NCBI GenBank assembly: GCA_019058245.1
Contig: JAHPZJ010000026.1
Location: 1,671-65,670 of the forward strand
Reading direction: 5' to 3'
DNA length: 64,000 bases
Source: Promethearchaeota archaeon
GTDB taxonomy: Archaea > Asgardarchaeota > Lokiarchaeia > Sigyniarchaeales > SOKP01
Shown: positions 1-47,613 of the stretch, piece after piece
Layout of the letters: every line of letters starts with the position of its first letter
How positions within the stretch are numbered: the stretch's first letter is position 1
Made by a program: the position numbers and the translations under genes
Notes under the pieces: generated by a model
The model's input: the letters and a program-made list of their open reading frames with translations, nothing else
Databases searched by the model: none
Told to the model about the DNA's origin: nothing

Positions 1-906
1 CCAAGTGCATATGATAATAGGCCCCTCACATTTGAGGAATGGGAGAGTAAAATAAAGCATATAATTTTTATGAGTGCAACTCCTGGAGAATATGAATTGG
101 AAAAAAGCGAAGGAGTGTATGCCGAACAAATAATTCGACCAACTGGTCTTGTGGATCCGATGGTAGAAATTAGACCGGCTGAAAATCAAATTGACGATTT
201 ATTAGGAGAAATTCGAAAAGTAATACAAAAAAATGGTAGGATTTTAATAACAACTCTCACGAAACGAATGGCAGAAGATATTGCTGAATATTACAATGAA
301 TTAGGTTTGAAAATAACCTATTTACACTCGGAAGTAGATACTGTTGAGAGATTTGAAATCTTACGTCAATTAAGAGATGGGACTTTTGATGTTTTAGTAG
401 GTATCAATCTTTTAAGAGAAGGTTTAGATCTCCCTGAAGTCCAATTAGTCGCTATTTTAGACGCTGATAAATTAGGATTTTTACGTGATACACGTTCTTT
501 AATACAGACTATTGGAAGGGCGTCTAGAAATGTTGAAGGGAAAGCTATATTATATGGGGATAGAATTTCACCTGCAATGAAAGCAGCTATCGATGAAACA
601 GATAGAAGAAGAAATAAACAGGTAAAGTATAATGAAGAACATAATATTACACCTCAAACAATTAAAAAGAATATTTTAAAATCTCTCTCCGAAGAACAAG
701 AATTTAACGAAAGGGAAGTTAAAAGGTTAAAGCAAAATGTAAAAGATAAAATAAAAGAATTAGAAAAACAAGGAGATATTGAAGTTGCTATTCAATATCT
801 TGAGGATAAAATGTTCATGGCAGCAAAAGAACTAAGATTTGAGGATGCTGCTTATCTACGAGATAAAATAAAAGAATTTAAGCAAACATATAAATTACAA
901 GCGTGA
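1..906 (+). CDS. uvrB: Excinuclease ABC subunit B, 3' part (gene starts before the window)
   Basis: Frame is open from base 1 ([14 protein letters not shown]...MSATPG); motifs [14 protein letters not shown] and [12 protein letters not shown]; C-terminal UVR domain ([15 protein letters not shown]). Confidence 0.97.
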
Positions 907-1202
907 ATAAATTCTTAAATTCTATACCTAAAACTTTGCTAAAAAAATGAAAAAAATAAAAACTAAGATATTCAATACAAAAAAGAACTTATTCTTCATT
1001 AAATAAATGCGATAATCGAGTGTTAATTAACTCAAAAAATTTATATTGGAACTAGAAATTATTCTTCCTATAAGGTTATTTTAATTAACCATAAAAATAA
1101 CTTAAATAATAACTAAAAATACATTTTGGAAATTAACTTTCATTATTAGTTAGTTCAGTAATGAATTATTTCTGAATAAAATGGTAAGAAGGTTGCAAAG
1201 CA

Positions 1203-1430
1203 ATGCCAGATAAATATAATGTTGATATGACATTAAGCGAACTTTTAGAAGATGAAGTTTCGGGGAATTATCTTAGAGAAAAATTAGGAGAACTTCTTAA
1301 TAGTCCTCAAGCGCAGATGGCGATGGGATTTTCATTGCGCCAAATTCAACAATTTGCGGAATCAATGGCTCCTGGTCAATTTCCAGCAGAAAAACTTGAT
1401 GAATTAGATGCTGGATTAAGAGCTCTATAG
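1203..1430 (+). CDS. Small helical hypothetical protein
   Basis: Clean 75 aa ORF. TLSELL...PQAQMAMGFSLRQIQQF...KLDELDAGL resembles a small domain I recall from C-termini of some bacterial glycosidases (unverified). Confidence 0.6.
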   Translation: MPDKYNVDMTLSELLEDEVSGNYLREKLGELLNSPQAQMAMGFSLRQIQQFAESMAPGQFPAEKLDELDAGLRAL

Positions 1431-1660
1431 AAAAATAGTAATTGTAGAAAAAGGATTTAGTGAATTTTAACTTATAAATTATTTATTTTTTTTACTTATT
1501 GTAGTACTCATTGCTCCCTTTTTAATGGTTTAATATTTTGTAGATTTGTAATATAAATAGAGAATTATCTTTAATACAATGGATCTAAAAAAGAACTCAG
1601 TTAAAAATGAGGTTTTTAGGAATCAGTTAGTTTTAATAACATATTATAGAAACAAAATGA

Positions 1661-1896
1661 TAATAATTCATTAATTAAATACCTTGCTTCTGAATATTAT
1701 TTTTTTATTGCAAATATCATCAAAAGGTTTTATATTATCTTAGTAAAATTTTTTTGACTTTCTGAATCAAAAAGATATAGTAGAATATGAATGAATTCAT
1801 TGTCATTAAGGGTGCTAAAGAGAATAATTTAAAAGATATTGATGTAAAAATACCACGTAATAAGCTTATAGTTGTAACTGGCATTAATTGGAGCGG
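1661..1896 (+). repeat. Diverged direct repeat, copy 1 (uvrA upstream region plus first 37 codons)
   Basis: Aligns to ~4447-4681; identical 27-mer gatgtaaaaataccacgtaataagctt at 1841-1867 and 4626-4652. Confidence 0.92.
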
Positions 1897-1909
1897 TTAT
1901 TATAAATAG
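1787..1909 (+). pseudogene. uvrA: Truncated uvrA 5' fragment (40 aa)
   Basis: Manual translation [40 protein letters not shown]; 32 of the first 37 aa identical to UvrA at 4572; breaks within Walker A. Confidence 0.92.
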
Positions 1910-1952
1910 ATTAACAGTGTAATTTAAATAATAAAAAAACTATAATTGAATT

Positions 1953-4382
1953 ATGGTAGTTCAAGATATCAAAATGTCTCCTCTTCAAGGGATTCCATCA
2001 GAGAGGGTTAGAAAAATTAGAGATAATATGTTGTCCCAACCCTTCGAATATGATCTTGAACGAGCCCGATGTTATTCCAGGATTTGGAAACAGATGGAAG
2101 ATGCTCATCCCTACATGAAAAAAGCCAAAGCACTTGAAGAGTTCTTATGCTGTCTTCCTATAAGAATTGATAGTGATGAGCTTCTTGTAGGAGTAAAATC
2201 CAGCAAAATAAGAGCTGATCCTTTTGAAATAGAACTTGGAAGGCATGTTCGAAGTTATGATTTTCTCTTAGATGATTCAATAGATGAAGCAGCTAAAAAT
2301 TATTTCCGTAAACATAATCCTATCCTTAGACGTTATGTTCCTCTTACAGAACAAGAGCTTGACGAATTGAAAAATGATATTATCCCCGTCTGGAAAGGAA
2401 GGACATTAGCTGATCGAAAAGAAGAACTCTGGAAGGAAGCAGGCTTATTTAAGGAGAAAAAGAGTTCTATGGAACGAGCTATAAGTTGGATTAATCCATT
2501 TTATGCCAATATGCAAGGTCATACAATTCCAGGTTATAAACGAGTTCTTAGAATAGGATTTAAAGGAATAGAAAAGAAAGCTACTGAAGAACTTAAAAAA
2601 ATTAAAGAAACTGATAAGGATTACGAAAATCGCAAGACTTTTTATGAATCAATTCTGGTTACTTCTAAAGCTGTTTGTGATTACTCCAATCGATATGCAG
2701 ATCTCGCAATGGAATTGGCTGAAACCGCATCAGAAACAAGAAAGGCAGAACTTTTAGAAATTGCTGAACGTACAAGACAAGTACCTGCCCTCCCACCAAG
2801 AACATTCATGGAAGCACTTCAATCAATATGGATGACGAATGTTGTTATGGAAATGAGCTATGGTGATGGCAATATTTTTTCTCAAGGTCGAGTAGACCAA
2901 TATCTTTATCCTTATTATGTAGTTGATTTAGCTGAAGGACGCATTACTTACGAAGAGGCTTTAGAGTCAATTGAGGAATATTTAGTGAAACTTGCTTCAG
3001 TCGTTATAGCAGGACAGAACAATATTACGATTGGGGGATTAGATAAGGATGGAAATGACGCCACAAATGATATATCATATATGTTTCTTGAAGCTGTTGC
3101 AAATGTAAAAAGTTTATTGAATACAATATCGATACGGATTTCTTCCAACACACCCCGCGATTTTGTGAAAAGAACTATTGAAGCTTTTAGATATACCGGC
3201 GGAATGGGCATTCATAATGATGAAATCTTAGTACCACAGCTTCAAGAAGATGGTTATTCACTAGAACATGCCCGAGATTACTCACTCGTAGGGTGTGTAG
3301 AACCTCATGGTACAGGTTTTGATTTTTCATACACTGCAGGTAATGGTGTTCGATTGTCAGTCGTTTTACATATGGCTTTAAATGAAGGACGAATTCTTAT
3401 AGCAGGTAACCGTCAATTTGGAGCAAAAACGCCTGATCCAAAAACTTTTAAAACTTTCGAAGATGTGAAAAAAGCTTTTGTAGATCAGCTTTCCTTTGGA
3501 GTAGATTTAGTTGTGAAAAAGGCAGAGTTAAAAGATCAAGCCTTTGCAGAATTTTTTCCTTCCCCTTTGCTTTCATCTACAATAGAGGGATGTTTAGAGA
3601 GTGGAAAAGATGTAACTCGAAATGGAGCGCGCTATAATAACAATCCTATTGGTTGTCAAGCATTAGGAACCGTAACCAATTCATTAGCAGCAATTCGCTG
3701 GGCAGTATTCGAAGAAAAATTATTAACAATGGAAGAATTAGTTACGCATCTTAATAATAATTTCAAGGGAGCAGATAAACTTAAAGAACTTTTAAGAAAT
3801 AAGGCTCCAAAATACGGTAATGGTGATGAACGGACAGACGAACTTGCAATATGGGTTGCGAATACTTTATGTGATATTGTGAGAAAATATCCTGCTAGAG
3901 GTGGTGCTGGTATTTATCGCACATATTTTGTATCTTCAGGACTTAATATTCTTGAGGGTAAAATGTTAGGAGCGACTCCCGATGGAAGATTATCTGGTGA
4001 AGCTGTTTCTAATGGCATATCTCCTGCAAATGGAACAGAGAAAAATGGGCTTACTATGACGCTCCGATCAGTAGCTCTAGCAACAAAAGATGCTCTTCTA
4101 ACCGGTGGAGCATCAATGAACATAAGAATCAATCCTAGTTTATTAGAAACAGATGAGGGCTTAGATAAATTAACTTCTATTGTAGAAGCTTATTTAGAAT
4201 TAGGAGGAAGGGAACTTCAGATTAATCCTGTAAGTTCAGAAACATTAAGAGACGCACAAGCTCATCCCGAAAAATATTCTGACTTATCAGTTAAGGTAAC
4301 AGGTTATTCTGCACGTTTTATAGAAATTGGTAGGAGTCTTCAAAATGACATCATAACCCGTACGGTATTTAACGAATTATAA
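1953..4382 (+). CDS. Glycyl radical enzyme (PFL2/dehydratase-like family), substrate unknown
   Basis: Cys loop SLVGCVEP; GRVDQYLYPYY; APKYGN; GATPDGR; C-terminal Gly loop VKVTGYSARF. Confidence 0.93.
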   Translation: MVVQDIKMSPLQGIPSERVRKIRDNMLSQPFEYDLERARCYSRIWKQMEDAHPYMKKAKALEEFLCCLPIRIDSDELLVGVKSSKIRADPFEIELGRHVRSYDFLLDDSIDEAAKNYFRKHNPILRRYVPLTEQELDELKNDIIPVWKGRTLADRKEELWKEAGLFKEKKSSMERAISWINPFYANMQGHTIPGYKRVLRIGFKGIEKKATEELKKIKETDKDYENRKTFYESILVTSKAVCDYSNRYADLAMELAETASETRKAELLEIAERTRQVPALPPRTFMEALQSIWMTNVVMEMSYGDGNIFSQGRVDQYLYPYYVVDLAEGRITYEEALESIEEYLVKLASVVIAGQNNITIGGLDKDGNDATNDISYMFLEAVANVKSLLNTISIRISSNTPRDFVKRTIEAFRYTGGMGIHNDEILVPQLQEDGYSLEHARDYSLVGCVEPHGTGFDFSYTAGNGVRLSVVLHMALNEGRILIAGNRQFGAKTPDPKTFKTFEDVKKAFVDQLSFGVDLVVKKAELKDQAFAEFFPSPLLSSTIEGCLESGKDVTRNGARYNNNPIGCQALGTVTNSLAAIRWAVFEEKLLTMEELVTHLNNNFKGADKLKELLRNKAPKYGNGDERTDELAIWVANTLCDIVRKYPARGGAGIYRTYFVSSGLNILEGKMLGATPDGRLSGEAVSNGISPANGTEKNGLTMTLRSVALATKDALLTGGASMNIRINPSLLETDEGLDKLTSIVEAYLELGGRELQINPVSSETLRDAQAHPEKYSDLSVKVTGYSARFIEIGRSLQNDIITRTVFNEL

Positions 4383-4446
4383 AATTACTATTTATTATTT
4401 TTATTTTTTTATACAGACAATTTTTTCGCAGTTTTAGGATTAAGAT

Positions 4447-4681
4447 TAAAAATTCATAAATTACTTACTCCGATTCTGTATTTTTTTTTTAATTGTTTAT
4501 ATCAGTATAAGGTTTTATAATATCGTAGAAAAATTTTTTTGATTTCCGGAATTAAAAAGAAATAGCAGAATATGAATGATTTTATTGTCATTAAAGGTGC
4601 CAGAGAGAACAATTTAAAAGATATAGATGTAAAAATACCACGTAATAAGCTTGTGGTGGTAACTGGCATTAGTGGGAGCGG
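4447..4681 (+). repeat. Diverged direct repeat, copy 2 (upstream region and 5' end of intact uvrA)
   Basis: Matches 1661-1896 at an offset of about 2785. Confidence 0.92.
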
Positions 4682-7439
4682 AAAAAGTTCCCTCGCAATG
4701 AATACATTATATGCAGAAGGACAAAGAAGATTCTTAGAGTCATTATCAAGTTACGCTAGGCAATTCTTAGGAGAGATGGATAAACCCGATGTAGATTCAA
4801 TAGAAGGATTATCTCCAGCAATTGCAATTGAGCAAAAATCACTCTCGAAAAATCCACGAAGTACAGTTGGGACAGTTACTGAAATCTATGATTATTATAG
4901 ATTACTATATGCTAATATTGGTATCCCTCATTGTCCGAATTGTGGAAAAGAAATAAAACCCCAAACACCACAGCAAATTATTCAACAAATCTTAGGAACG
5001 ATAGAAGAAAATCAAAAATTTATTGTTAAATCTCCAGTTATTAGAGATAGAAAAGGAGAATACAAAGATCTTTTACAAGATTTAAAAAAGCAAGGATATG
5101 TTAGAGTAGAAATTGATGGGATACAATATACATTGGATGAAGATATCTCTATGGAAAAGAATGTTAAGCACAATATAAATGTTATTATTGACAGATTAGT
5201 AATGCGAAAAGATATCAGAACAAGACTAGCTGATTCTATTGAAACAGCATTAGAACTATCAGAAGGCTTAGTAATTGTTGAAATTGTGGGAAAAATGGAA
5301 CAAATTTATTCTGAACATCTTGCTTGTATTGATTGTGGAATTTCATTTCCTCCAATAGACCATAAAATGTTTTCTTTTAATATCCCTCACGGAAGTTGTA
5401 AATATTGTAGTGGTTTAGGTAATGTTATGGAATTTGACTATGGTTTATTATTAGGAAATGACTTAGATGTTCCACTACAAGAGACTCCGATTAGAGATAT
5501 TCCTGGTTTTGGATCTGAAAATGGATATTCTTGGCAAACTATAGTACAAGTTGCGAAACACTATGGATTCGATACTAAGCATACTCCAATTAAAGATATT
5601 GATTCAAAAAAACTCCATAAAGTTTTGTTTGGAACAGAAAATGAATCAATTGATTTTCATTTTGTAAGTGATAATACTGAATTTAAAAATAATAATGGAG
5701 AATTTAAATCTTCCTGGCAAGTTGTAAGACCATTTGAGGGAATAATTCCAATTCTTCACAGAAGATATATGGAAACCCGTTCAGAATGGGCTCGTGATGT
5801 CTATGAAAGTTTTATGAAGAGGATAGATTGTCCTCAATGCAAAGGTAAAAGGTTAAAACCTGAGAGTTTGGCTATAACGATCAAGAATCTTAATATTGCT
5901 GATTTATCTAACCTAGCTGTAAAGGAATCCTTAAAATTCTTCAATGAATTACAATTAAATGAAACTGAAAGGATAATAGTTAAAGAAGTATTAAAAGAAA
6001 TATTAGATAGACTATCTTTTCTTGAAAATGTGGGGTTAGACTACATAACTCTAAACCGTCGTTCAGATACACTATCTGTAGGGGAAGCTGAAAGGATAAG
6101 ATTGGCGACTCAATTAGGTTCTAGCTTAGTAGGGGTTCTATATGTATTAGATGAACCAAGTATAGGATTACATCAAAGAGATATCTCACGTCTCATTAAA
6201 ATGCTAAAAAAATTAAGAGATTTAGGAAATACAGTTATAGTGGTGGAACATGATGAGGCAATAATACGTAGTGCAGATCACATAATTGATTTAGGGCCAT
6301 TAGCGGGTGAAAGAGGGGGCGAAATAGTAGCTGAAGGCCCTATAGAAACCATAGTTAATTCAGATAGTTTAACGGGAGAATATTTGTCAGGGAAAAAGAG
6401 AATTGAAATTCCAGAGGTTAGACGTGAAATTAATCAAGACATTATTGAAATAAAAGGAGCCAAAGAAAATAATTTAAAAGGTATTAATGTAAAAATTCCT
6501 TTAGGAATATTTACTTGTATTACTGGAGTTTCTGGAGCGGGAAAAACAAGTCTTATTATTGATTGTCTATATAAAGGGCTTCATAATATAATAAACACTC
6601 GAAGTTCTAAACTAAATCAAGGAAAATTTGATAAAATAATAGGATATGAAAAAATAGATAAAATTATAAATATTGACCAATCTCCCATAGGAAGAACTCC
6701 AAGATCAGTACCTGCTACTTATACAAAAGCATTAGATTATATTAGAGAAATTTTTGCTGGTTTGCCAGAATCTAGAGAAAGAGGTTATAAGAAGGGAAGA
6801 TTTAGTTTCAATACAAAGGATGGACATTGTAAAAAGTGTAAGGGTACAGGCTATATTTTGAAAGAAATGTATTTCCTACCTGATGTGTATATCAAATGTG
6901 ATTTATGTAAAGGTAAAAGATATAATGCTGAAACATTAGACATAAAATATCGCGGAAAATCAATCTTTGATGTATTAAAGATGACTTTTCATCAAGCTTT
7001 AGAATTCTTTGAAAGTTTTCCGAATTTAAGGAGAACGATTAAAACTGTAGTAGACGTTGGATTAGGTTACTTAGAATTAGGTCAATCTTCGACAACACTT
7101 AGTGGTGGTGAATCACAAAGATTAAAAATTGCGAGAGAATTGAGAAAAATGAGTACTGGAAACACATTGTATATTTTAGATGAGCCAACAACTGGTCTCA
7201 GTTCTTTTGATATTAATTATTTATTAAAAGTACTTCAAAAGTTAGTTGATATAGGAAATACTGTAATCATTATTGAACATAATATGGATATTGTAAAGTC
7301 TGTTGATTATATTATTGATCTTGGTCCAGAAGGTGGTGAAAAAGGAGGCAATATTGTAGCTCAAGGCTATCCTGAGAATATAATTAAGAATAATAAGTCG
7401 TATACTGCTCAATATTTAAAACCATATCTGAAATCTTAA
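4572..7439 (+). CDS. uvrA: Excinuclease ABC subunit A
   Basis: Two ABC ATPase modules (GISGSGKSS, GVSGAGKTS, LSGGESQR, LDEP), CxxC zinc fingers, YAEGQRR. Confidence 0.98.
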   Translation: MNDFIVIKGARENNLKDIDVKIPRNKLVVVTGISGSGKSSLAMNTLYAEGQRRFLESLSSYARQFLGEMDKPDVDSIEGLSPAIAIEQKSLSKNPRSTVGTVTEIYDYYRLLYANIGIPHCPNCGKEIKPQTPQQIIQQILGTIEENQKFIVKSPVIRDRKGEYKDLLQDLKKQGYVRVEIDGIQYTLDEDISMEKNVKHNINVIIDRLVMRKDIRTRLADSIETALELSEGLVIVEIVGKMEQIYSEHLACIDCGISFPPIDHKMFSFNIPHGSCKYCSGLGNVMEFDYGLLLGNDLDVPLQETPIRDIPGFGSENGYSWQTIVQVAKHYGFDTKHTPIKDIDSKKLHKVLFGTENESIDFHFVSDNTEFKNNNGEFKSSWQVVRPFEGIIPILHRRYMETRSEWARDVYESFMKRIDCPQCKGKRLKPESLAITIKNLNIADLSNLAVKESLKFFNELQLNETERIIVKEVLKEILDRLSFLENVGLDYITLNRRSDTLSVGEAERIRLATQLGSSLVGVLYVLDEPSIGLHQRDISRLIKMLKKLRDLGNTVIVVEHDEAIIRSADHIIDLGPLAGERGGEIVAEGPIETIVNSDSLTGEYLSGKKRIEIPEVRREINQDIIEIKGAKENNLKGINVKIPLGIFTCITGVSGAGKTSLIIDCLYKGLHNIINTRSSKLNQGKFDKIIGYEKIDKIINIDQSPIGRTPRSVPATYTKALDYIREIFAGLPESRERGYKKGRFSFNTKDGHCKKCKGTGYILKEMYFLPDVYIKCDLCKGKRYNAETLDIKYRGKSIFDVLKMTFHQALEFFESFPNLRRTIKTVVDVGLGYLELGQSSTTLSGGESQRLKIARELRKMSTGNTLYILDEPTTGLSSFDINYLLKVLQKLVDIGNTVIIIEHNMDIVKSVDYIIDLGPEGGEKGGNIVAQGYPENIIKNNKSYTAQYLKPYLKS

Positions 7440-7568
7440 TGACTTAAGATTTTTCCTTAAAAATCTTTTTAAGGCTTAAAGCAAAATTCTAAACCTATGG
7501 TAAATTAATTTATACTGTAAGTATTGTTAAATTATTATAAATATATTGTTTGAGATTCGTGGCAGAAA

Positions 7569-9374
7569 ATGACAGAAGCTAATAATAAGATAATTAGAGC
7601 TCCGATTGTTTGTATTCTTGGTCATATTGATCATGGAAAAACTACTATACTAGATTATATCAGAGGTACTATGGTTCAACAAAGAGAAGCAGCAGGAATT
7701 ACACAACATATTGGCGCTTCATATTTTCCAACAGAAGATATAAAAGAATTTTTAAGAAAATCAAAACAAGAATTTGCTGAAAAAGAAATTAATCTTCCAG
7801 GAATATTAGTTGTAGATACACCAGGGCATGCCGCCTTTCTAAATCTACGAAGAAGAGGAGGTGCTGTTGCAGATATTGCAATTTTAGTTATAGATGTTAC
7901 TGCTGGAACAATGCCAATAACATGGGAATCAGTACGGATTTTAAGAGAGAGAAAAACACCTTTTGTTATTGCTGCTAATAAAATAGATAGAATATCTGGA
8001 TGGAAGTCAAAAAAGGATGCTGATTTTCTCGATACCTATAACTCTCAAAAACCACATGTAAAAGACTTTTTGGATGAGAAAATTTTAGGTATTATAGGTA
8101 ATTTCTTAGAGGAGGGATTTAAGGGAATAGATCGCTATGATAAAATAAAAGATTTTACTAAGAAAATAGCGATTGTACCTACAAGTGGAAAAACTGGAGA
8201 AGGTATTTCGACGCTTTTAATGATTTTAATGGGGTTAGTACAACAATATCTAACTGCAAATCTCCAATTTTCTGAAGGATCAGCTAAAGGAGTTGTATTA
8301 GAAGTTAAAAAAGAGAAAGGTCAAGGAAAAACAATGGATGTTCTTATTTATGATGGTATTATTAATAAAGGAGATGAATTTATTGTTGGGGGATTAGAAA
8401 AACCCATTAAATCTAAAGTAAGAGCTTTATTAACTCCAAAACCTTTAGATGAAATTCGAGATCCAAGACAAAAATTTGATTCTGTTGACTTTATTAGTGC
8501 AGCAGCTGGTATTAAAATCCTTTCCCCAAATATCGATGATGTTGTAGCAGGCTCTCCATTTAGAGGTATAAAAGATTCTTCCGAAGAGGAAACTATATAT
8601 AAAGAAATAGAGTCTGAAGTGGAAAGTATTAGGATAAAAACTGATAAAGCAGGAGTGGTTTTAAAAGCTGATACTTTGGGTTCACTTGAAGCATTGGAAA
8701 ATCATTTTACAAAAAATGGAGTGAAGATAAGCATTGCTGATGTAGGACCAATTAAAAAAGAAGACATCATTAATGCAAATATAGTCAAAGAATTAGATCC
8801 ATATTCTGCAACAGTTTTGGGATTTAATGTTCCAATATTACCTGAAGCTAATGAACAAGCCATTAAAGATAATATACGGATCTTCACGAATAATGTTATA
8901 TATCGCCTATTAGAAGAATATATAGAATATGCAGAAATAAGAAAAGCTGAAGACACTGCAAAAGGTTTAAGTGAACTCATCTTGCCTGCTAAAATTAAAA
9001 TGCTTCCTGAATTTATATTTAGAAATTCAGATCCCGCTGTTTTTGGTGTTTATGTAGAAGCTGGGACTTTATACCCAAAAGTCCAGTTAATTACTGATAA
9101 AGGTAAAAGAGCTAGGAGAATTCATCAAATTCAAGATAAAGGACAAACACTCGAAAAAGCTCCGAAGGATTCAGAGGTTGCGATTTCTATTCGAGGTATT
9201 GAAATTGGGCGAGATCTTGAAAAGGATGAAACATTATTTGTTAACATCCCAGAATCTCATGTTAGACAATTAATGGGAAAATTTATTGATGAATTAACCA
9301 CAGATCAAAAACAAGCTTTAAGAGAATTCATCCTTTTAATGCGTAAGGTCAATCATCCATGGTGGGGGATGTAA
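7569..9374 (+). CDS. infB: Translation initiation factor aIF5B (IF-2)
   Basis: IRAPIVCILGHIDHGKTT, GITQHIGA, DTPGH, NKID, KADTLGSLEAL. Confidence 0.97.
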   Translation: MTEANNKIIRAPIVCILGHIDHGKTTILDYIRGTMVQQREAAGITQHIGASYFPTEDIKEFLRKSKQEFAEKEINLPGILVVDTPGHAAFLNLRRRGGAVADIAILVIDVTAGTMPITWESVRILRERKTPFVIAANKIDRISGWKSKKDADFLDTYNSQKPHVKDFLDEKILGIIGNFLEEGFKGIDRYDKIKDFTKKIAIVPTSGKTGEGISTLLMILMGLVQQYLTANLQFSEGSAKGVVLEVKKEKGQGKTMDVLIYDGIINKGDEFIVGGLEKPIKSKVRALLTPKPLDEIRDPRQKFDSVDFISAAAGIKILSPNIDDVVAGSPFRGIKDSSEEETIYKEIESEVESIRIKTDKAGVVLKADTLGSLEALENHFTKNGVKISIADVGPIKKEDIINANIVKELDPYSATVLGFNVPILPEANEQAIKDNIRIFTNNVIYRLLEEYIEYAEIRKAEDTAKGLSELILPAKIKMLPEFIFRNSDPAVFGVYVEAGTLYPKVQLITDKGKRARRIHQIQDKGQTLEKAPKDSEVAISIRGIEIGRDLEKDETLFVNIPESHVRQLMGKFIDELTTDQKQALREFILLMRKVNHPWWGM

Positions 9375-35931: not shown

Positions 35932-37170
35932 ATGTCTTCAGACATTTCTAGTTTTATAAAAGTTATTTCAAAATTTTTAGATTTAAAATCTACAAAAATT
36001 GATAAATTACAAAAGATTGACGATGTCCTAAAATTACATATCAACTCCTATAAATTTATTGATAAAGAAGAGGCAACTATAATTAAACAATTATTAGAAG
36101 TTACTACGATTTTAGATGCTTCTAAATTAAATAAAGAAAATCCATTTGAAGTCTTAACTGAAATTGAGGAAACTGATGATTCTATCGAGTTAACAGCTAA
36201 CTTGGAGCAAAAAATTGAGGAACTTAAAGTAAAATATCCAAAACTTGAGGAGAAATTAAAAAAAACAGCGACAATTAGCTCACTTATCGCAAGTGTAAAA
36301 GAAGATAAAGAAGGAATTGATATAGAAGCTCAAAAAGTACTTGTGGCAGGGCTCGATAATGCAGGTAAAACCGCTACCTTGTCGAAATTTGGAGGGCGTT
36401 TAGGAATAAGTGATATGATTACTACTCACCCTACTAAAGGGGTTGTTCGAATGAAGTTTGGTACTTCTAATCTCTCACTCTATATATGGGATCTTGGGGG
36501 TCAACAAGAATACAGAGAAAGATACTTAGAAAATCCAGAGCAATATTTTCTACAACTTGATTTGTTAATTTATGTAATTGATGTTCAAGATCCAGAAAGA
36601 TTTGAAGAATCTCTTGAATATTTTGAAAAAATTATTGATGAAATTATTTTATTAGAGGAGAATCCATATATTATAATTTTTATTCATAAGTATGACCCTG
36701 ACATAAAAAATGACCCAAAAATACTCTTGAATATTGAACTGTTAAAAGATAATTTAAATGAATTATTCAAAAACAAAAAAAATGATTTTAATAATGAAAC
36801 ATATTTAACTTCTATATACTCATTAATTTCTCGAGAGCCTCAGTTCGCTAAGTATATTAAAAATCTTATGAGTGCTAATCATTCACTTTCAGATCCTACT
36901 GTACGAAAAGTTGAGGGTTTAGGAAAAACACTTGAAGAGACCTTAAATGCGGTCATTAGATTATCTGAAAGTATTTCATCACAACTCAATGATCTTGATA
37001 GTCGTCTTAGAGCGATAGAATCGGGAGCATTTCAAGTCGCGCAAAGTGGAATTCCCATTGAAATCGCAAATCCAAATCAAACTGGAATTAGACCCCAAGA
37101 AAATACTCGATTAAGAGTCCTAAATGAATTGAAAGATTTATTTAGTAAGAGAAAAAGCTTAGATTTTTAA
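35932..37170 (+). CDS. Arf-like GTPase with N-terminal extension and C-terminal coiled coil
   Basis: GLDNAGKT, PTKG, WDLGGQ, HKYD, TSIY. Confidence 0.88.
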   Translation: MSSDISSFIKVISKFLDLKSTKIDKLQKIDDVLKLHINSYKFIDKEEATIIKQLLEVTTILDASKLNKENPFEVLTEIEETDDSIELTANLEQKIEELKVKYPKLEEKLKKTATISSLIASVKEDKEGIDIEAQKVLVAGLDNAGKTATLSKFGGRLGISDMITTHPTKGVVRMKFGTSNLSLYIWDLGGQQEYRERYLENPEQYFLQLDLLIYVIDVQDPERFEESLEYFEKIIDEIILLEENPYIIIFIHKYDPDIKNDPKILLNIELLKDNLNELFKNKKNDFNNETYLTSIYSLISREPQFAKYIKNLMSANHSLSDPTVRKVEGLGKTLEETLNAVIRLSESISSQLNDLDSRLRAIESGAFQVAQSGIPIEIANPNQTGIRPQENTRLRVLNELKDLFSKRKSLDF

Positions 37171-37174
37171 TTTT

Positions 37175-37900
37175 TTACTTTTTGTTCTCTCTTAAAATAC
37201 TCCTTAATTGTTTTTCAATTGCAAGCAAAAAAATTAAAACAAAAATAATTAATGAGAGTAAAAAATATCCTAAATTACTAATTAATAAAGGATTTATTTG
37301 TTGATAATGAATTTCATACGTTGAAAATTGTTCTAAGTAAGAAAGAAATAGAACTAGTAGTGGTCCCATCAGATAAATAGCAATTAAAAATCCTATTATC
37401 CCAAATATACTACCAAAAATAACATCCGAAGGATAATGAACACCAAGCTGAATTCTTGAAAAACATACGATACATGCAAATCCTAAAAAAAGAATTGTAA
37501 TGAATAGTGAATTTAGAAAAAAGAATCCAATCAAAAGTCCATTTGCTACAATATTATAAGCATGCCAAGATGGAAAGCTTCTTGAAATTGGCCTTCGTTC
37601 AAAAACTATAATTTTATCTTCTTTAAAACTTTCAAATGGTCTTTTTCTTTTTACAGCTTGTTTGATCACTAATATTAAGACTAAACCAATAAGAAATGTG
37701 GTAGAGATATAAGATAGCAAAAATGGATCATACCAGATTAACAAATAAAAGGCAATTAAATATAGCCAAATAGTTTCTCTTCCGAAAAAAGAAAAAAATT
37801 TTAAAATATAGGTAATTGGTTTGCCTCCCATTCCGTTGTATTTTAAAATAATTTTCTGATCCCATTGGTCAATTTTCTTTAAAATATTTGATATTTTCAT
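37175..37900 (-). CDS. PAP2-family membrane phosphatase
   Basis: KxxxxxxRP, SFPSWH, SRIQLGVHYPSDV. Confidence 0.92.
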   Translation of the reverse strand: MKISNILKKIDQWDQKIILKYNGMGGKPITYILKFFSFFGRETIWLYLIAFYLLIWYDPFLLSYISTTFLIGLVLILVIKQAVKRKRPFESFKEDKIIVFERRPISRSFPSWHAYNIVANGLLIGFFFLNSLFITILFLGFACIVCFSRIQLGVHYPSDVIFGSIFGIIGFLIAIYLMGPLLVLFLSYLEQFSTYEIHYQQINPLLISNLGYFLLSLIIFVLIFLLAIEKQLRSILRENKK

Positions 37901-38769: not shown

Positions 38770-40677
38770 CTAATTAATTGAATCTTCTTTATCAAAAAAT
38801 ACACGATAAAATAGCTCTCTTTCTCCCTCTTCTGGAGGAGTTATCTTAGTATATCCCCCTTTGTGAATAACACGAATTGTACCTTTGTTTTGAATATGGA
38901 TATTCCCATAAAATCCTTTAATCCCTTTTTCTTTAGCAATAATAATTAAGTGCTGGTAGAGAAAAGTTCCAATTCCTTTCTTCCTATAGTCTTCTCTAAC
39001 TACGAAACTATATTCTGCCATGTTAGTTTTAGGATTTAAATAATATGTTGCGCTTCCAATCATTTCCTCATTATCAATTTCCCCAATGAATGCTCCTAGT
39101 GAGAAGACATTATCATAATCAATATTTACTTCATTTTGAGTTTTTGAGTGTGTGAATTCTTTTCGAAGTTCAAAAAAACGTAAATATCTATCTCTTTCAT
39201 TTAATGAGTAATATAACTCTTTAAGTGCCTGCTCATCAGTCGTTTTTACAGGACGAATGTTAACTTTTTCATTATCCCTTATTGTAAAAATAGTTTCATA
39301 TTCAAAAGGATATAAGCAAATTCGACCTTCCTCATCGCATGGAAGCATTTGATCTGAAAATATATAATTTAATCTCTTAGCCTCATCTAATAATGATTGT
39401 CGGAATTTTGGGTGTGCTATGCAAATTAATTCAAGAACTCTTTCACGAATAGTTTTTCCATGAAGATAAGCAACGCCCCATTCAGTTACAACATAATGCA
39501 CATCTCCACGAGACAGCAATATACCCGCTCCTTCATCTAAGTGAGGAACTATACGTGATTTTTCACCATCTCTAGATGTTGAGGGTATGATAATTATAGG
39601 TTTTCCTCCTTTAGAAAAAGCCGCGCCTCTCATAAAATCGATAGTTTCTCCTAAACCTGAATAAAAACTATAACCTTCTGTTGCGGCGTTTACTTGACCT
39701 GTTAAATCTATTTGTCTGGCAGAATTAATAGAAACCATCTTTTTATTCCTCCCAATTAATATTGGATTGCATACATAGTCAGATGGATAAAATTCTATAT
39801 AGGGATTATTATCAACAAACTTATATAATTTATGTGTTCCTAAAGCAAAACTAGTAATAATTTTTTCAGGATGAAAATTTTTCTTTCTACAAGTTAAAAA
39901 ACCATCTTCAATAAGAGGTATTATATTATCGGTAATGTAATGAGAGTGCATACCCAAATCTTTTTTATCCGATAAGAATGGTAAAACTGCATTTGGTAAA
40001 TCACCAAATCCAATATGAATTGTTGATTTATTTTCCACTAAATTCGCAACATTTCTTCCTATTCTTTCTGCAATTTCATCTGGTTTATCAAATTGAAACT
40101 CTAGTAGAGGAGTATCATTATAAACAAAAAAATCAATTTCTTTCATATGTATAAAACTGTTCCCTAGTGTTCTGGGCATTTGAGGGTTAATTTCAGCAAT
40201 AGTAATATAAGATGATTGAGCAATTGGTTTTGCTATATCTATATTTAGACCTAGAGAACAGAACCCATAAGGATCGGGAGGTGAAACTTGTATTAATGCT
40301 ACATCGACATGTTTTTTTCCAGTTAAAAATAGAGATGGAATTTCACTAGTGAAAATTGGGGTATAATCCGCTTGGCCTTTGTTAATTTCCTCACGAAGAG
40401 TTTTACCTATAAATAAAGCATTGTGTCTAAAAAGATCTTCAGCTTTATCCTTAAAATATTTCTCTGGGCCTATTGTTAAAAAGTGAAGAATCTCGGTATC
40501 AATTAGCTTTTCTGACTGTTTAATCAATTCTGATGTCAGTATTTGAGGTTCTGAACAACCAGAATCAATAAATACTCTATTTCCTGGAATAATTTTCTTT
40601 ATTGCTTCCTCAGCTGTAATTTCCTTGTCTTTCCACTTTTTTCTCCACTCTTCTACTATCACTTCAGAATTCATCAT
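38770..40677 (-). CDS. Acetyl-CoA hydrolase/CoA-transferase-like domains fused to a C-terminal GNAT acetyltransferase
   Basis: DVALIQVSPPDPYGFCSLG, EINPQMPRTLG, IDLTGQV, VVTEWGVAYLHGK, IAHPKFR; GNAT IRPV...YLRFF...AEYSFVVREDYRKKGIG. Confidence 0.92.
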   Translation of the reverse strand: MMNSEVIVEEWRKKWKDKEITAEEAIKKIIPGNRVFIDSGCSEPQILTSELIKQSEKLIDTEILHFLTIGPEKYFKDKAEDLFRHNALFIGKTLREEINKGQADYTPIFTSEIPSLFLTGKKHVDVALIQVSPPDPYGFCSLGLNIDIAKPIAQSSYITIAEINPQMPRTLGNSFIHMKEIDFFVYNDTPLLEFQFDKPDEIAERIGRNVANLVENKSTIHIGFGDLPNAVLPFLSDKKDLGMHSHYITDNIIPLIEDGFLTCRKKNFHPEKIITSFALGTHKLYKFVDNNPYIEFYPSDYVCNPILIGRNKKMVSINSARQIDLTGQVNAATEGYSFYSGLGETIDFMRGAAFSKGGKPIIIIPSTSRDGEKSRIVPHLDEGAGILLSRGDVHYVVTEWGVAYLHGKTIRERVLELICIAHPKFRQSLLDEAKRLNYIFSDQMLPCDEEGRICLYPFEYETIFTIRDNEKVNIRPVKTTDEQALKELYYSLNERDRYLRFFELRKEFTHSKTQNEVNIDYDNVFSLGAFIGEIDNEEMIGSATYYLNPKTNMAEYSFVVREDYRKKGIGTFLYQHLIIIAKEKGIKGFYGNIHIQNKGTIRVIHKGGYTKITPPEEGERELFYRVFFDKEDSIN

Positions 40678-41103
40678 AATTATATCTCAAAATTAAATTT
40701 TTTAATTATAAGTGCAATATCTAATCTTTTTTTTAATTATTTCCCAACAATATAATGTTTTTGAAATTATAAATATATAATTTTTGGTAGAATTAATGAC
40801 TTTAGCTTAATATAATGATCAGTAAAGACCAAATAGTTCAATTTGATACATAAAAAACATACCTATATACTTCTATTATCAGTTAGTCGAAGAAAAATTT
40901 CTATAATTATAATTAAATTATAAGTAAAATGTTTAAATGGAATTATATACATTTCCCAATTGATTAAATTCTAATCATTTACACTAGAAAAATTTAAATG
41001 TAATGCATCAAAAAAAAAAAATCTTTAAAATTATTGAAGAATTTATTAAAATTAGATATTTTAACAATTAAAATAAAAAGAAAATTTATTTAAGTGAAGA
41101 AAT

Positions 41104-43086
41104 TTGTCAAATAAAGATAAGAAAATGGAAAGCATTCTAACTGAGAATAGAATATTCGACCCAGTAAAACTGAACGAGAATTTTGCGAAGACTGGAATGT
41201 CTTTTGAAGAATATAAAAACCTTTACAAAAGATCAATCGAAGATTTAGAAGGTTTTTGGGGAGAACAAGCTAATTCTCTTGATTGGTTTACTCCATATGA
41301 AAAAGTTTGGGAAAAAACCGATTTATTTCCTGGCAAGTGGTTTAGTGGTGGTAAACTTAATGTTGCTTATAATTGTCTTGATAGGCATGTAAAAAATGGA
41401 AAAGGAGATCAAGTAGCTCTTATTTGGGAAGCTGATGAACCCGGACAAGTTAAATCTTATACTTATAAAGAATTACTTGCTGAAGTAAGTAAAACTGCTA
41501 ATGCAATGAAAAAAGCGGGATTAAAAAAAGGGGATAGAGTTACCATTTGGCTTCCTATGATTCCTGAATTAGCAATAATCATGTTAGCATGTGCTCGGAT
41601 TGGTGTTATTCATTCAATAGTATTTGGTGGATTCTCAAAAGAAGCAGTGAAAGATAGAATTGAAGATTCAAATTCTCGATTATTATTTACTAGCGATGAA
41701 ACCGCACGAGCTGGAAAATTTTATCCAAAAATGTCCGATGTAGTCCAGATTATCAATGATGTACCTACAATTGAACATGTAATTGTTGTAAAACGAACTG
41801 GAAGAGAAGTACCCCATACTGATAAAGATATTTGGTATCATGATTTTATAGAAGGAATGAGTGAGGAATGCGAACCTGAAATAATGGATTCTGAAGATAC
41901 CCTATTCATTCTTTATACTAGTGGTACAACGGGAAAACCAAAGGGAGTAAATCATACAACAGCAGGATATATATTATATACATCTTTTACTCACAAACTT
42001 GTATTCAATTATCAAGATGGAGATATCTGGTACTGTACTGCTGATATTGGATGGATCACTGGACATTCTTATATTACATATGGACCTTTAGCTAATGGTG
42101 CTACAACTCTTATGTTTGAGGGAGTTCCAACTTACCCTGATGTTGATCGATTCTGGGATATTGTTGAGCGTCATAAAGTAACTCATTTCTATACGGCCCC
42201 TACTGCAATTCGTGCTTTAATGAGATATGGTGATGAACCTGTAAAAAAACATGATCTTAGTTCCTTAAAAGTTTTAGGTACTGTTGGTGAACCTATTAAT
42301 CCAGAAGCATGGACGTGGTATCATCGTATAGTAGGTAAAGAACGTTGTCCAATTGTTGATACTTACTGGCAAACGGAGACTGGAGGTTTCATCATGACTC
42401 CTATAGCAACAGCCACACCCACTAAACCAGGATCATGCTGTCTACCATTCTTAGGTATTAAACCTGTTATTTTCGATTTGGAAGGGGAAGAAGTTACAGA
42501 ACCTCATGAAGGCGGATATTTTGCAATAGCAAGTCCTTGGCCTGGAATGTTAAGGGATGTTTGGGGCGATACTGAAAGATTTAAATCGACTTACCTTGAA
42601 CGATATCCCGGTTATTATTACACTGGTGATGGAGCACGACGAGATGAAGATGGATATTATTGGATTTTAGGTAGGTTAGATGATGTTATTAAAGTATCTG
42701 GGCATAGAATTGGTACAATGGAAGTAGAATCCGCTCTTGTGAGCCATCCTAGTGTTGCAGAAGCTGCTGTTGCGCCATTTCCACATAAAATCAAAGGACA
42801 GGCAATTTGGGCTTATGTAACTCTTATGCAGGGCGTTGAGAAATCAGCTAAATTATCTAAAGAAATAAGAATGCATGTACGGCAAGAAATCGGACCAGTT
42901 TTTCAACCTGATGTTATTCAGTTCGCTGATGCATTACCTAAAACGAGAAGTGGTAAGATTATGCGTAGAATCTTAAAAGCTATCGCAGCAGGAACGGATA
43001 TTGGAAATGTAACCACTCTAGCGGATCCCTCTGTAGTAGATGACCTACTGGAAGAACGGAAGAAAATGGATATTGAGACGGATTAA
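41104..43086 (+). CDS. acs: Acetate--CoA ligase (AMP-forming)
   Basis: YTSGTTGKPKG, DTYWQTETGG, GRLDDVIKVSGHRIG, LPKTRSGKIMRR; start is TTG 41104 or ATG 41125. Confidence 0.96.
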   Translation: MSNKDKKMESILTENRIFDPVKLNENFAKTGMSFEEYKNLYKRSIEDLEGFWGEQANSLDWFTPYEKVWEKTDLFPGKWFSGGKLNVAYNCLDRHVKNGKGDQVALIWEADEPGQVKSYTYKELLAEVSKTANAMKKAGLKKGDRVTIWLPMIPELAIIMLACARIGVIHSIVFGGFSKEAVKDRIEDSNSRLLFTSDETARAGKFYPKMSDVVQIINDVPTIEHVIVVKRTGREVPHTDKDIWYHDFIEGMSEECEPEIMDSEDTLFILYTSGTTGKPKGVNHTTAGYILYTSFTHKLVFNYQDGDIWYCTADIGWITGHSYITYGPLANGATTLMFEGVPTYPDVDRFWDIVERHKVTHFYTAPTAIRALMRYGDEPVKKHDLSSLKVLGTVGEPINPEAWTWYHRIVGKERCPIVDTYWQTETGGFIMTPIATATPTKPGSCCLPFLGIKPVIFDLEGEEVTEPHEGGYFAIASPWPGMLRDVWGDTERFKSTYLERYPGYYYTGDGARRDEDGYYWILGRLDDVIKVSGHRIGTMEVESALVSHPSVAEAAVAPFPHKIKGQAIWAYVTLMQGVEKSAKLSKEIRMHVRQEIGPVFQPDVIQFADALPKTRSGKIMRRILKAIAAGTDIGNVTTLADPSVVDDLLEERKKMDIETD

Positions 43087-43267: not shown

Positions 43268-44677
43268 TTACTTTCGACGATTTACAATCCTTTCAATAAG
43301 AATAATAATAATAACTATTATCGCAATTGGAGGGAATATTAATAGAAATAACCTAAATACCCATAATTCTGCTATATGTTCAGCAAGTACAAACATCAAT
43401 CCATCTATAAAAGTACTAATCAAGGAAATACATGTAAATAGAAATAAAATATTGTTCATTTTATTATCGCTTAATTCCTGCAATCTTTCTTTACCTCTAT
43501 TATGTAAATATTCAAATACATCCAATTTTTCCATAAAAAAAGCTTCCATTTGAGAATTCCTCCAACTTTCAATAGATTGTTGGTATATAAAATGGGCAAA
43601 TGGGGCTAAATTTTGTAAATAATTCGATTTATTTACAGAATACAATTCCATTTCCATTCTTAATTTATTTATCCATCTAACAGCTTTTCTTACACGTCGC
43701 TTTTGTAATCCTTGATAAGATGCAAGCTGATTCAAACGTCTATATAATATTTCATTAAAAACCTGCAGAGTACGCCATTCAATTTCCAAATATCTCAGTA
43801 TCTCTTTAGCATAATTAAATTCTTTATCATTTAATCCAGCCCATAAACTATTTCCCCATCCAATATGGACAAATCCATCTGTATCTTTTGCAAAATTTAT
43901 ACGACCTTCAGGATGACTAACTTCGATAATTTTTCTCATAATCTCATCTATAGGCAATATATCCTGTTGATTTTTTTTGTTTTTTATAAGGACTATATGA
44001 CCCCATAAGGGAATATCAGATTGTTGATTACTAAACAATTCCTCATAGTTAATTATGGGTTTTCCAATATCTAATTCATCAAAAATCTCCTTAGATATTC
44101 TAAAAACATTTTTTCCAATCGATTCAGTTTCTTTTAATAGATCCGGAAATCGTACAATTTTATCTAGTAATTTTGCCATTATTTTTTTTGGTTCTTCCTC
44201 CTGTATTTTTATGAAATCTTGTGTAAATTCTATTTCTAGCTTACAATAAATCATTCCAATACCATATTCATGAAAACTCATGGATTCAAAAATAAGTAAT
44301 GGAGGTGCTTTAAATATGTTCATTCCAATTATATCTAAAGGTAAAGTATATTTTTTTTTAACTTGAATGGTAATAATACTTTTATCTCTTTGAGTAGCAC
44401 CACTTCCTCCTGTACCTGTAAATAAAAGCTCATCTATCTCACCATGGATCATTTTTTCATCTGTTTTCGCCCACTTTTTTATACTTTCGATTGGATTAAC
44501 CTCATCCTTAAACTTTTCAATTAAAATCTGGTCAGGATAAATTTTTTCTAGTTTTAAAAAGAGAAGTTTTCTTATTTTTTCATATTTTCCAATTAAAGTA
44601 GAATAATCAAAAACCATTCTTGAATTGAAAGGAGTGATAACATAAAAAGTATCTTTTCTATCATCTACCATTTCCAT
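43268..44677 (-). CDS. Hypothetical protein with helical stalk and two C-terminal TMs (CorA/RMD1-like layout)
   Basis: Long ORF; KMNNILFLFTCISL TM entry but no GMN motif. Confidence 0.65.
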   Translation of the reverse strand: MEMVDDRKDTFYVITPFNSRMVFDYSTLIGKYEKIRKLLFLKLEKIYPDQILIEKFKDEVNPIESIKKWAKTDEKMIHGEIDELLFTGTGGSGATQRDKSIITIQVKKKYTLPLDIIGMNIFKAPPLLIFESMSFHEYGIGMIYCKLEIEFTQDFIKIQEEEPKKIMAKLLDKIVRFPDLLKETESIGKNVFRISKEIFDELDIGKPIINYEELFSNQQSDIPLWGHIVLIKNKKNQQDILPIDEIMRKIIEVSHPEGRINFAKDTDGFVHIGWGNSLWAGLNDKEFNYAKEILRYLEIEWRTLQVFNEILYRRLNQLASYQGLQKRRVRKAVRWINKLRMEMELYSVNKSNYLQNLAPFAHFIYQQSIESWRNSQMEAFFMEKLDVFEYLHNRGKERLQELSDNKMNNILFLFTCISLISTFIDGLMFVLAEHIAELWVFRLFLLIFPPIAIIVIIIILIERIVNRRK

Positions 44678-45942: not shown

Positions 45943-47613
45943 TTGAATTTAGAGATTGAAGAATTATCTGAAAAAGTAAGAGGAATGGAATCTAAAGAAG
46001 CTGTGGAAATGCTAGTTTCATTATTTTCTACATCAAAGAATGTAGAATTGAAAATAAAGGCCGTAGATCTTTTAAATGAGCATAATGATATTGGAAATAA
46101 AAGTTTTCAAGAAATAAAAACTGTTTTTATAAAAGATCATCATCCTCGATTAAGGCTTAAATTAATTAACTTAATAGCACAATATCATCAATATGAAGGA
46201 AGTGATTTTTTAAAGGAACAGTATAAAAATTGTAAAGATGGAACAGTTCGAAAACATCTAATCAATAAAGTTGGAGAGAATAGTCTAAATGATTCAATAT
46301 CGTTTCTTATCGAATCATTAAGTGATTCTGATTTTGAAGCAAAAAGAGAAGCAATAACCCTCTTAGGAAAAACTAATGCGGCTGAAGCACTAAAACCATT
46401 GATAGATATGTTTCATTTCAGGAATGCTGATATTTATAATGCTCTGATTAATTCTATTGTAAAAATTGGAAAGAAAGGAAACTTAAAACCAATACTTGAG
46501 TATGTAGATATAGAAGATCTTTATATTAAAAGAGAGATTCCTGTGATACTTGGAAAGATAAAAAATAAGGAGAGTGAAAAAGTTTTAATAAACCTTTTAA
46601 AAGATAGAGATGCAATAATACGGAAAAATTCTGCAACGGCTTTAGAAAAAATAGTTGAATTGAAAAATATAAGGCATATTTTAGAATTATTAAAAGATGA
46701 AAATATTGAAGTAAAGAAAGAAGCTATACGAGTATTGGGTAATGTAGAGAGTAAGAGGGCTATCTCCCCTTTATTTGAAATACTCAAAGAAAATGACGTA
46801 AAACTAAGAAATCTTGCTAAAAATGCTCTTTTTAAAATTTTTGAAAAATATAAATCCTTTGATCCTATTTATGAAATAGTAAAGGGAAGAAACATTAATG
46901 CTAGGAGGGAAGCAATAAAACTATTAGGAATATTAAAAGATGTTAATGCTATTGACTTTTTGATATCTATTTTCAATAGTAAAGTAGCAAGTTTACGAGG
47001 CTCTGCTTATAGATCACTTTTAAAAATTTTAGATAACAAAATTGACAATAAAATTCTTAATGCATTATCAGACAAATCTTGGCAAGTAAGAATGTTTTGT
47101 GTCAAAATCCTAGGTGAAATTAAAGATTCACAAACATTAGATCAGATTTTTAGTTTAATTGAGGATGAACACGGGAGCGTTAGAAAATCAGCTGTTGATG
47201 CATTAATCAAATTTGAACATGAAGAAGTATTAAATTTTGCAAACAACGCTCTGAAGAGTCCAAACTGGAAGACTAGAAGAGCCGCAGTTAAAATATTATT
47301 AAGAACTGGAAGTCAGGATTCATTAAACTCTCTGATTTCATGTTTAAATGATGATGATGTATATATAAAAAGCTGGGCTGCTATGGCATTAGGAAATCTT
47401 AAGGATATAGATACTATTGAACCTTTTATCCAGCTTTTGAAAGAAAATGATGAAAAAATAAGAATATCTGCCGTAAAGGCTTTAGGTGAGATTGCAAATA
47501 AAGAATCAATTAAACCTCTCATACAAGCATTAGGAGACGATAATTGGAATGTAAGAAAAGAAATTGAGAAAGCTCTAAATAAAATTGATCCTGATTGGAT
47601 GAGCTATTTATAA
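45943..47613 (+). CDS. HEAT (PBS lyase-type) repeat protein
   Basis: Repeated LLKDxxxxVRxxAxxALG units throughout. Confidence 0.92.
   Translation: MNLEIEELSEKVRGMESKEAVEMLVSLFSTSKNVELKIKAVDLLNEHNDIGNKSFQEIKTVFIKDHHPRLRLKLINLIAQYHQYEGSDFLKEQYKNCKDGTVRKHLINKVGENSLNDSISFLIESLSDSDFEAKREAITLLGKTNAAEALKPLIDMFHFRNADIYNALINSIVKIGKKGNLKPILEYVDIEDLYIKREIPVILGKIKNKESEKVLINLLKDRDAIIRKNSATALEKIVELKNIRHILELLKDENIEVKKEAIRVLGNVESKRAISPLFEILKENDVKLRNLAKNALFKIFEKYKSFDPIYEIVKGRNINARREAIKLLGILKDVNAIDFLISIFNSKVASLRGSAYRSLLKILDNKIDNKILNALSDKSWQVRMFCVKILGEIKDSQTLDQIFSLIEDEHGSVRKSAVDALIKFEHEEVLNFANNALKSPNWKTRRAAVKILLRTGSQDSLNSLISCLNDDDVYIKSWAAMALGNLKDIDTIEPFIQLLKENDEKIRISAVKALGEIANKESIKPLIQALGDDNWNVRKEIEKALNKIDPDWMSYL

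Follow-up and report, generated by a model that had tools for sequence, protein, structure and literature searches.

A 64,000-nt stretch of the Promethearchaeota archaeon contig JAHPZJ010000026.1 (positions 1,671 to 65,670; hereafter the window; G+C ~28%) carries two genes in head-to-head orientation. P0001 encodes a CoA-transferase-like domain fused to an acetyltransferase domain of the GNAT family, and acs encodes P0002, an AMP-forming acetyl-CoA synthetase (Table 1). The nearest homologues of P0001 are labelled Asgard (Loki-, Prometh-, Hod-, and Hermodarchaeota). In P0001, residues that form the catalytic centre of class I CoA-transferases are replaced, and the replacements are nearly fixed in a clade of close homologues, hereafter the rebuilt clade. 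A sequence-only reading of this DNA had noted the motifs DLGMHSHY and SGLGETIDF in P0001 and a divergent Acs that keeps PKTRSGK; these observations are borne out at exact coordinates, and the neighbouring gene is the only true acs of the genome.

The N-terminal part of P0001 matches the Pfam families AcetylCoA_hydro N (PF02550; residues 9-188, 1.3e-26) and AcetylCoA_hyd_C (PF13336; residues 280-433, 4e-60). HMMER aligns the protein to the solved AbfT-type transferases 9vag (E = 1e-119) and 3gk7 (9e-100), and also to 3eh7. The AlphaFold2 model of P0001 has a pLDDT of 91 and a pTM of 0.87, and its N-domain superimposes on 3gk7 and 2oas in Foldseek with TM scores of 0.92-0.95 and root-mean-square deviations of 1.5-1.9 Å. 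Fold and homology both assign the N-domain to the two-domain α/β class I CoA-transferases.

In the alignment to AbfT (3gk7), LGIHSE238 is matched by LGMHSH246 and SGVGGQVDF by SGLGETIDF. In particular, His246 takes the position of the nucleophile E238, consistent with the Glu loss claimed in the sequence-only reading. The same nucleophile is E249 in RipA (PMC3180442) and E294 in AarC (PMC4876117). The AarC residues were mapped by sequence alignment via a third protein, an AarC-like open reading frame (ORF) in locus L087. In this alignment, the AarC segments LPLQ267SGV270G, GYSE294, DVSN347SP, and GIGG388SGDF392 correspond to the P0001 segments STIH221IGF224G, GMHSH246, DYVC303NP, and GLGE344TIDF348, respectively. 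In AarC, the N347 carboxamide hydrogen-bonds and orients E294 as the internal oxyanion hole, the G388 N-H touches the E294 carboxylate as the external oxyanion hole, and one ligand methyl group is ~4 Å from Q267, E294, G388, and F392 (PMC4876117). The two oxyanion-hole positions of P0001 are occupied by Cys303 and Glu344. The gate loop of RipA, G-V227-G (PMC3180442), corresponds to G223-F224-G225 of P0001. On this mapping, the side chains of His221, His246, Cys303, and Glu344 are predicted to converge on the former thioester site.

The C-terminal part of P0001 matches Pfam GNAT (PF00583; residues 509-606, 1.2e-12). Its top PDB matches are 9it0 and 9isq (PatZ), 4nxy (S. lividans PatA), 3f8k (Sulfolobus Pat), and 4orf (mycobacterial Pat), and the best NCBIfam GNAT model is NF058543 (mycobacterial Pat), at 49.8 bits and far under the 460-bit cut-off. 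Motif A, which the sequence-only reading had described as intact, reads RKKGIG and fits the acetyl-CoA-binding pattern Q/R-x-x-G-x-G/A. Residue Glu555 aligns with the catalytic Glu of PatZ/SePat (E809) and of S. lividans PatA (E123), and is retained in 21/21 genomes of the rebuilt clade that were checked. The Pat-type YxRFF segment is present as YLRFF. By these residues, the GNAT domain of P0001 is of the Pat type. The accessory domain is not the NDP-forming acyl-CoA-synthetase-like domain of type I/II Pats; it consists of PF02550 and PF13336.

The replacements in the N-domain are specific to few positions. In 61 relatives that bear Glu and GGQ, 69 columns reach a conservation of 85% or more, and the rebuilt clade retains 62 of them. 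The remaining seven are altered in the clade, and each alteration is nearly fixed: D216N, G217K, Q221H, E246H, N303C, G344E/D, and Q345T. Five of them (Q221H, E246H, N303C, G344E/D, and Q345T) affect catalytic-centre residues, which are swapped together. His221 and Cys303 are each present in 121/121 clade members, residue 344 is Glu in 66 and Asp in 55, and residue 246 is His in 116, Tyr in 4, and Leu in 1. The pattern N-K-H-H-C-[E/D]-T-F occurs in 109/121 clade proteins, and the combination of H/Y246, E/D344, and T345 is kept in 120 homologues (74-91% identity) and 41 genomic loci, which speaks against a chance occurrence.

The rebuilt copy does not behave as a pseudogene. Its frame is open in 40/41 loci. 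Across 210 pairs of genomes, the identity of the transferase-like domain is 82.7% for the rebuilt copy and 82.0% for an intact paralogue from the same genomes; the corresponding values for the GNAT domain are 77.3% and 71.7%. The N-domain is thus as conserved as that of the intact paralogue, and decay is therefore rejected. Judged by these identities, the N-domain is under selection and is as constrained as the intact copy. Since five catalytic-centre residues are replaced together, the CoA-transferase-like domain may be rewired rather than dead. The sequence-only reading had called the domain catalytically dead. Glu and GGQ are indeed lost, but deadness is not established, with the conserved Glu/Asp344, two His residues, and a Cys at the site. 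That reading had also named another Glu in the active site as a ground for refutation, and this is found in part: Glu/Asp344 occupies the position of the oxyanion-hole Gly, beside the old nucleophile.

The intact paralogue of this genome (L002:1450-3372; G000:C10:89123-90937) is a second fusion, 53% identical to P0001, that keeps LGVHSEV, YVN, and SGIGGQVDF, and with them Glu, Asn, and GGQ. It is away from acs, and its neighbours are a TatD-like hydrolase gene and an HhH-GPD-like gene. The motif A of its GNAT domain ends with Ser/Thr (RSLGIS), not Gly/Ala. In the phylum sample, copies at least 70% identical to P0001 are found only in the window's own family, and the same genomes hold the intact copy (~50%). 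In the maximum-likelihood tree, a single Lokiarchaeial clade (SH-aLRT 100) is nested among mostly bacterial fusions. It comprises the intact paralogues, a Lokiarchaeum ossiferum-type E246D group, and P0125 together with the rebuilt clade. P0125 is the lone representative of a sister lineage, is not beside acs, and reads His/Phe/Ser/Asp at the replaced positions. The tree indicates that the rebuilt form is a paralogue that arose by duplication inside this archaeal family. The cultured Lokiarchaeum ossiferum has three fusion paralogues (E, D, and E at position 246), none of the His/His/Cys/acid type and none beside acs; it was rejected as a test organism on these grounds.

The architecture itself is not a unique invention of this lineage. 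A genome scan with a 10-sequence alignment as query detects the CoA-transferase-GNAT fusion at no fewer than 598 loci in GTDB representative genomes. Among the matches listed are Planctomycetota, Chloroflexota, Myxococcota, Thermodesulfobacteriota, Verrucomicrobiota, Acidobacteriota, Thermoplasmata, Methanoliparum, and others, so that the fusion is widespread across bacterial and archaeal phyla. The family forms dozens of 50%-identity clusters, and its proteins are named 'GNAT family N-acetyltransferase' or 'acyl-CoA hydrolase/GNAT' in databases. A literature search for the CoA-transferase-GNAT architecture found no study. A review of acetyltransferases lists the accessory domains of types I-V as NDP-forming synthetase-like, cAMP, ACT, NADP Rossmann, none, or tandem, and a CoA-transferase accessory type is missing from the scheme (PMC8556138).

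Glu and GGQ are mostly retained in the nearest bacterial and archaeal members of the fusion family. Among cluster representatives, Glu is absent in 36/82 fusions (D in 16, then Q, P, A, F, and others) and, with a separate Gly subfamily set aside, in 2/51 stand-alone proteins. Judging by this difference, fused domains seem often able to do without catalysis. The Gly subfamily consists of stand-alone proteins of ~425 residues (e.g. P0229, P0238, P0241, and P0260). Their pattern, D-G-Q-G-H-G-Q-F, has Gly in place of the nucleophile and His in place of the Asn, and their catalytic centre may be displaced or differently arranged.

The linkage to acs extends beyond the window, as the sequence-only reading had proposed to check. 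In the rebuilt clade, acs is on the same contig within 3 kb of the fusion, mostly divergent, in 24/30 genomes, counts that are not independent observations inside one archaeal family. In the remaining genomes, acs is 13 kb away in one, and the others are at contig ends or have no acs match at the threshold. In one clade genus, a membrane-protein gene is inserted between the fusion and acs. Outside the clade, 69 fusion loci with flanks of up to 7 kb were sampled, with acs and HDAC matches by tblastn and two Pfam confirmations. Acs (at least 49% identity) is found at 11/69 loci, an HDAC-type gene at 18/69, mostly directly downstream on the same strand, and either of them at 23/69, in at least eight phyla. 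Unrelated phyla thus share the association.

Individual loci add detail to the association. In the clade locus L042, a Pfam Hist_deacetyl gene (279 bits) is 42 nt downstream of the fusion. At L085:5215-6702, in an Anaerolineae genome, a gene encodes an HDAC-type deacetylase joined to a response-regulator receiver domain, as confirmed by Pfam; it overlaps the fusion gene at the 3' end of the latter, and acs is 1.7 kb beyond. In another Asgard family, intact fusions are divergent from a gene of the MFS or GPR1/FUN34/YaaH (SatP-type acetate channel) type, behind which lies acs, and in a third Asgard family intact fusions are convergent with acs. Some genomes of another Asgard family have two tandem intact fusions beside an MFS-transporter gene and then acs (L151 (G170:C64) 3741-7810; L152 (G152:C7) 204-4105). 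The acs linkage of intact fusions in other Asgard families argues that the link is ancestral to Asgard fusions and independent of Glu loss. Within the window's family, it is the rebuilt copy that is linked to acs, and the intact copy has another location. The genome also encodes candidate erasers, namely four SIR2 and two HDAC homologues. The recurrent neighbours, namely acs, HDAC-type deacetylase, and acetate transporter genes, fit an Acs writer/eraser module.

Table 1 Features of the fusion-acs locus, in window coordinates
Feature	Position	Strand	Basis or remark
PAP2-family membrane phosphatase gene	37175..37900	-	Next conserved downstream neighbour after the PHP/HisJ-like gene
PHP/HisJ-family phosphoesterase-like gene P0003	37926..38720	-	Conserved downstream neighbour of the fusion in the rebuilt clade
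Fusion gene P0001 (635 aa), CoA-transferase-like domain and Pat-type GNAT	38770..40677	-	Pfam, NCBIfam, PDB matches, AlphaFold2 model
Pat-type GNAT domain, residues 472-611, with YLRFF	38845..39264	-	Pfam, PDB alignments
GNAT motif A RKKGIG, R565-G570	38968-38985	-	Acetyl-CoA-binding motif Q/R-x-x-G-x-G/A
Catalytic Glu555 codon	39013-39015	-	Alignment to Pat enzymes
N-terminal AbfT/Cat2-type CoA-transferase fold without class I catalytic residues, residues 9-433	39379..40653	-	PDB matches, Foldseek
SGLGETIDF	39634-39660	-	P0001
Glu344-Thr345 codons	39643..39648	-	Stand where the GGQ loop has G-Q; AarC G388 (external oxyanion hole) aligns with E344
Cys303 codon	39769..39771	-	Replaces internal oxyanion-hole Asn (AarC N347)
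DLGMHSHY	39937-39960	-	P0001
His246 codon	39940..39942	-	Replaces nucleophile Glu (AbfT E238, RipA E249, AarC E294)
His221 codon	40015..40017	-	Replaces conserved Gln (AarC Q267), three residues ahead of the gate loop
Divergent spacer shared by P0001 and acs, 426 bp	40678..41103		
acs, AMP-forming acetyl-CoA synthetase P0002 (660 aa)	41104..43086	+	TIGR02188, 959 bits
PKTRSGK of acs	42937-42957	+	Lys618 codon, 42955-42957

The spacer between the two genes contains two promoter-like blocks with a common AATGTTT core, at 40745-40766 and, TATA-like, at 40918-40940, that are conserved across 24 loci. A 151-nt stretch (40767-40917; flanks TTATAAAT / TTATAAGT) separates the two blocks, which elsewhere adjoin, and is without counterpart in the 23 other aligned loci. 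It is present as a single copy in the assembly, and a repeated mobile element was rejected.

Downstream of the fusion, the PHP/HisJ-like gene and the PAP2 gene follow in most clade loci; in L042, the HDAC-type deacetylase takes this slot. P0003 has the motifs DYHVHS, GLE, and GSDSHS, its homologues are labelled PHP/HisJ phosphatases, and a Pfam scan of the protein gave no match. A role of P0003 as a substitute for a deacetylase is unsupported by these data, and a functional tie to the fusion is unproven. A 469-aa ORF (43268-44677, minus strand) is convergent with acs and has a C-terminal hydrophobic helix and no Pfam match. The locus is flanked by genes for a 412-aa Arf/Rag-like GTPase (35932-37170, plus strand) and a 556-aa HEAT/ARM-repeat protein (45943-47613, plus strand), both typical Asgard 'eukaryotic signature' genes.

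Taken on guilt by association and homology, P0001 is probably a Pat-type lysine acetyltransferase that acts on the neighbouring Acs, with the CoA-transferase-like domain as its regulatory module; we hold this reading with moderate confidence. The GNAT domain would move an acetyl group from acetyl-CoA onto Lys618 of Acs, in PKTRSGK. This acetylation would block the adenylation step and turn acetate activation off, and a sirtuin or HDAC homologue of the genome would remove the acetyl group. The N-domain would no longer be able to form the glutamyl-CoA thioester, and would instead be a non-catalytic regulatory, ligand-binding or oligomerisation module, as the synthetase-like domain is in Pat/PatZ. 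We infer Acs as the target and the off-switch as the effect from sequence and gene order, and CoA or acyl-CoA would be the ligand sensed by the N-domain. In accordance, Pat-type GNATs classically modify the active-site Lys of Acs, and the large domain of Pat, although inactive, binds acetyl-CoA and has a regulatory effect on the enzyme (PMC8556138).

The closest known systems are type I/II Pats (S. enterica Pat, E. coli PatZ/YfiQ (9IT0/9ISQ), and S. lividans PatA (4NXY), with CobB). Their GNAT domain is homologous to that of P0001 and shares its catalytic Glu, motif A, and YxRFF segment, their classical target is Acs, and in both cases the GNAT is fused to a large CoA-related domain that has lost its ancestral catalysis, or in P0001 has probably lost it. 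However, the accessory domain is NDP-forming acyl-CoA-synthetase-like in these enzymes and has the AbfT-type class I CoA-transferase fold in P0001. The parallel that the sequence-only reading drew to the inactive synthetase-like module of Pat therefore stands at the level of architecture, but not as a lone invention, and most family members keep Glu. Type III Pats (mycobacterial cAMP-Pat (4ORF), ACT-GNAT, and M. xanthus NADP-GNAT) have Acs as a substrate, as is proposed for P0001, whereas their sensor folds differ. In the acsA/acuABC locus of Bacillus subtilis, acs is divergent from an acetyltransferase gene, as at the P0001 locus, and as in acuABC an HDAC/AcuC-type deacetylase follows in the operon in L042 and many bacterial loci. 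However, AcuA is a stand-alone GNAT of another subtype, and the gene downstream of P0001 is PHP/HisJ-like, not a deacetylase. The N-domain shares its fold and 38-40% identity with AbfT (3GK7), 2OAS, RipA (3QLI), and AarC (4EU3), and differs from them in the replaced nucleophile Glu, oxyanion Asn and Gly, and neighbouring Gln residues, and in the fused GNAT.

Several observations weigh against this reading. Glu, Asn, and GGQ persist in most of the family, in the intact paralogue of this genome, and in those fusions of other Asgard families that are linked to acs; therefore, the ancestral N-domain may be a working enzyme, not a sensor. His221, His246, Cys303, and Glu/Asp344 are nearly invariant and by nature reactive, which is more than a disabled pocket requires. 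The genome encodes 14 other AMP-binding ligases that could be targets, the linkage in the clade is partly inherited synteny, and no deacetylase gene was found in the 64-kb window.

The conserved reactive residues lead to the alternative that the domain is not a pseudoenzyme at all. The carboxylate would have shifted to Glu/Asp344 and, with invariant His221 and Cys303, would form a re-tooled site coupled directly to the lysine acetyltransferase. This site would be a Cys-His-acid acyl-enzyme centre or, alternatively, a metal-thiolate site able to distinguish free CoA from acyl-CoA. We found no literature precedent for either chemistry in the class I CoA-transferase fold, and consider this alternative possible but unlikely.

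In its catalytic form, which we regard as doubtful, Cys303, His221, and Glu/Asp344, perhaps with His246, would make up a nucleophile-base-acid centre, newly built where the thioester formerly lay. Through an S-acyl-cysteine intermediate, the domain would still react with acyl-CoA as a thioesterase, an acyl relay, or a covalent sensor. Consistent with such a centre, His221, Cys303, and the acid at 344 are invariant in the clade while 246 tolerates Tyr or Leu, and the AarC equivalents of the replaced residues, Q267, N347, and G388, converge on the nucleophile E294 (PMC4876117). In P0125, of the sister lineage, the equivalents of 221, 303, and 344 are His, Ser, and Asp. Across the family representatives, an acid at 344 is confined to Glu-less members (7/36 versus 0/95), and His221 is enriched among them (13/36 versus 3/95). 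However, a side chain at the oxyanion-hole Gly may just fill the pocket, the other Glu-less lineages have no common replacement pattern, and our literature search found no Cys triad in this fold.

Lower in rank, and improbable, is a GNAT target other than Acs: a small molecule, or a different protein such as a chromatin protein or one of the 14 other AMP-forming ligases. The adjacency to acs would then reflect only shared acetate/acetyl-CoA metabolism. Sulfolobus Pat, for example, acts on Alba. The many AMP-binding paralogues of the genome fit this alternative, as do the positions of the intact paralogue and P0125 away from acs. However, the linkage to acs and deacetylase genes recurs across phyla, the Acs lysine motif is intact, and that lysine is the one Pat-type GNATs classically target (PMC8556138).

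The least probable alternative is that His221, His246, Cys303, and Glu344 bind a metal such as Zn or Fe, at a site that would stabilise the emptied pocket or bind the free CoA thiol and so tell CoA-SH from acyl-CoA. Ligands of this kind are typical of metal sites, these residues are conserved and predicted to converge, and the location is where the CoA sulfur sits in class I transferases (PMC4876117), but His246 is Tyr or Leu in 5/121 members.

Control of Acs by lysine acetylation is a textbook metabolic switch, and its known writers carry few kinds of sensor module. The fusion family adds a module derived from a CoA-transferase, widespread in bacteria and archaea and outside the published type I-V scheme. 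The Lokiarchaeial genomes present a natural experiment, with intact and rebuilt paralogues in one genome and the acs linkage retained by the rebuilt one. This pair makes testable which ligand the module senses, and whether catalysis has been lost or reinvented. Asgard archaea live by fermentation and syntrophy, and the finding bears on how the flux of acetate and acetyl-CoA is regulated in them.

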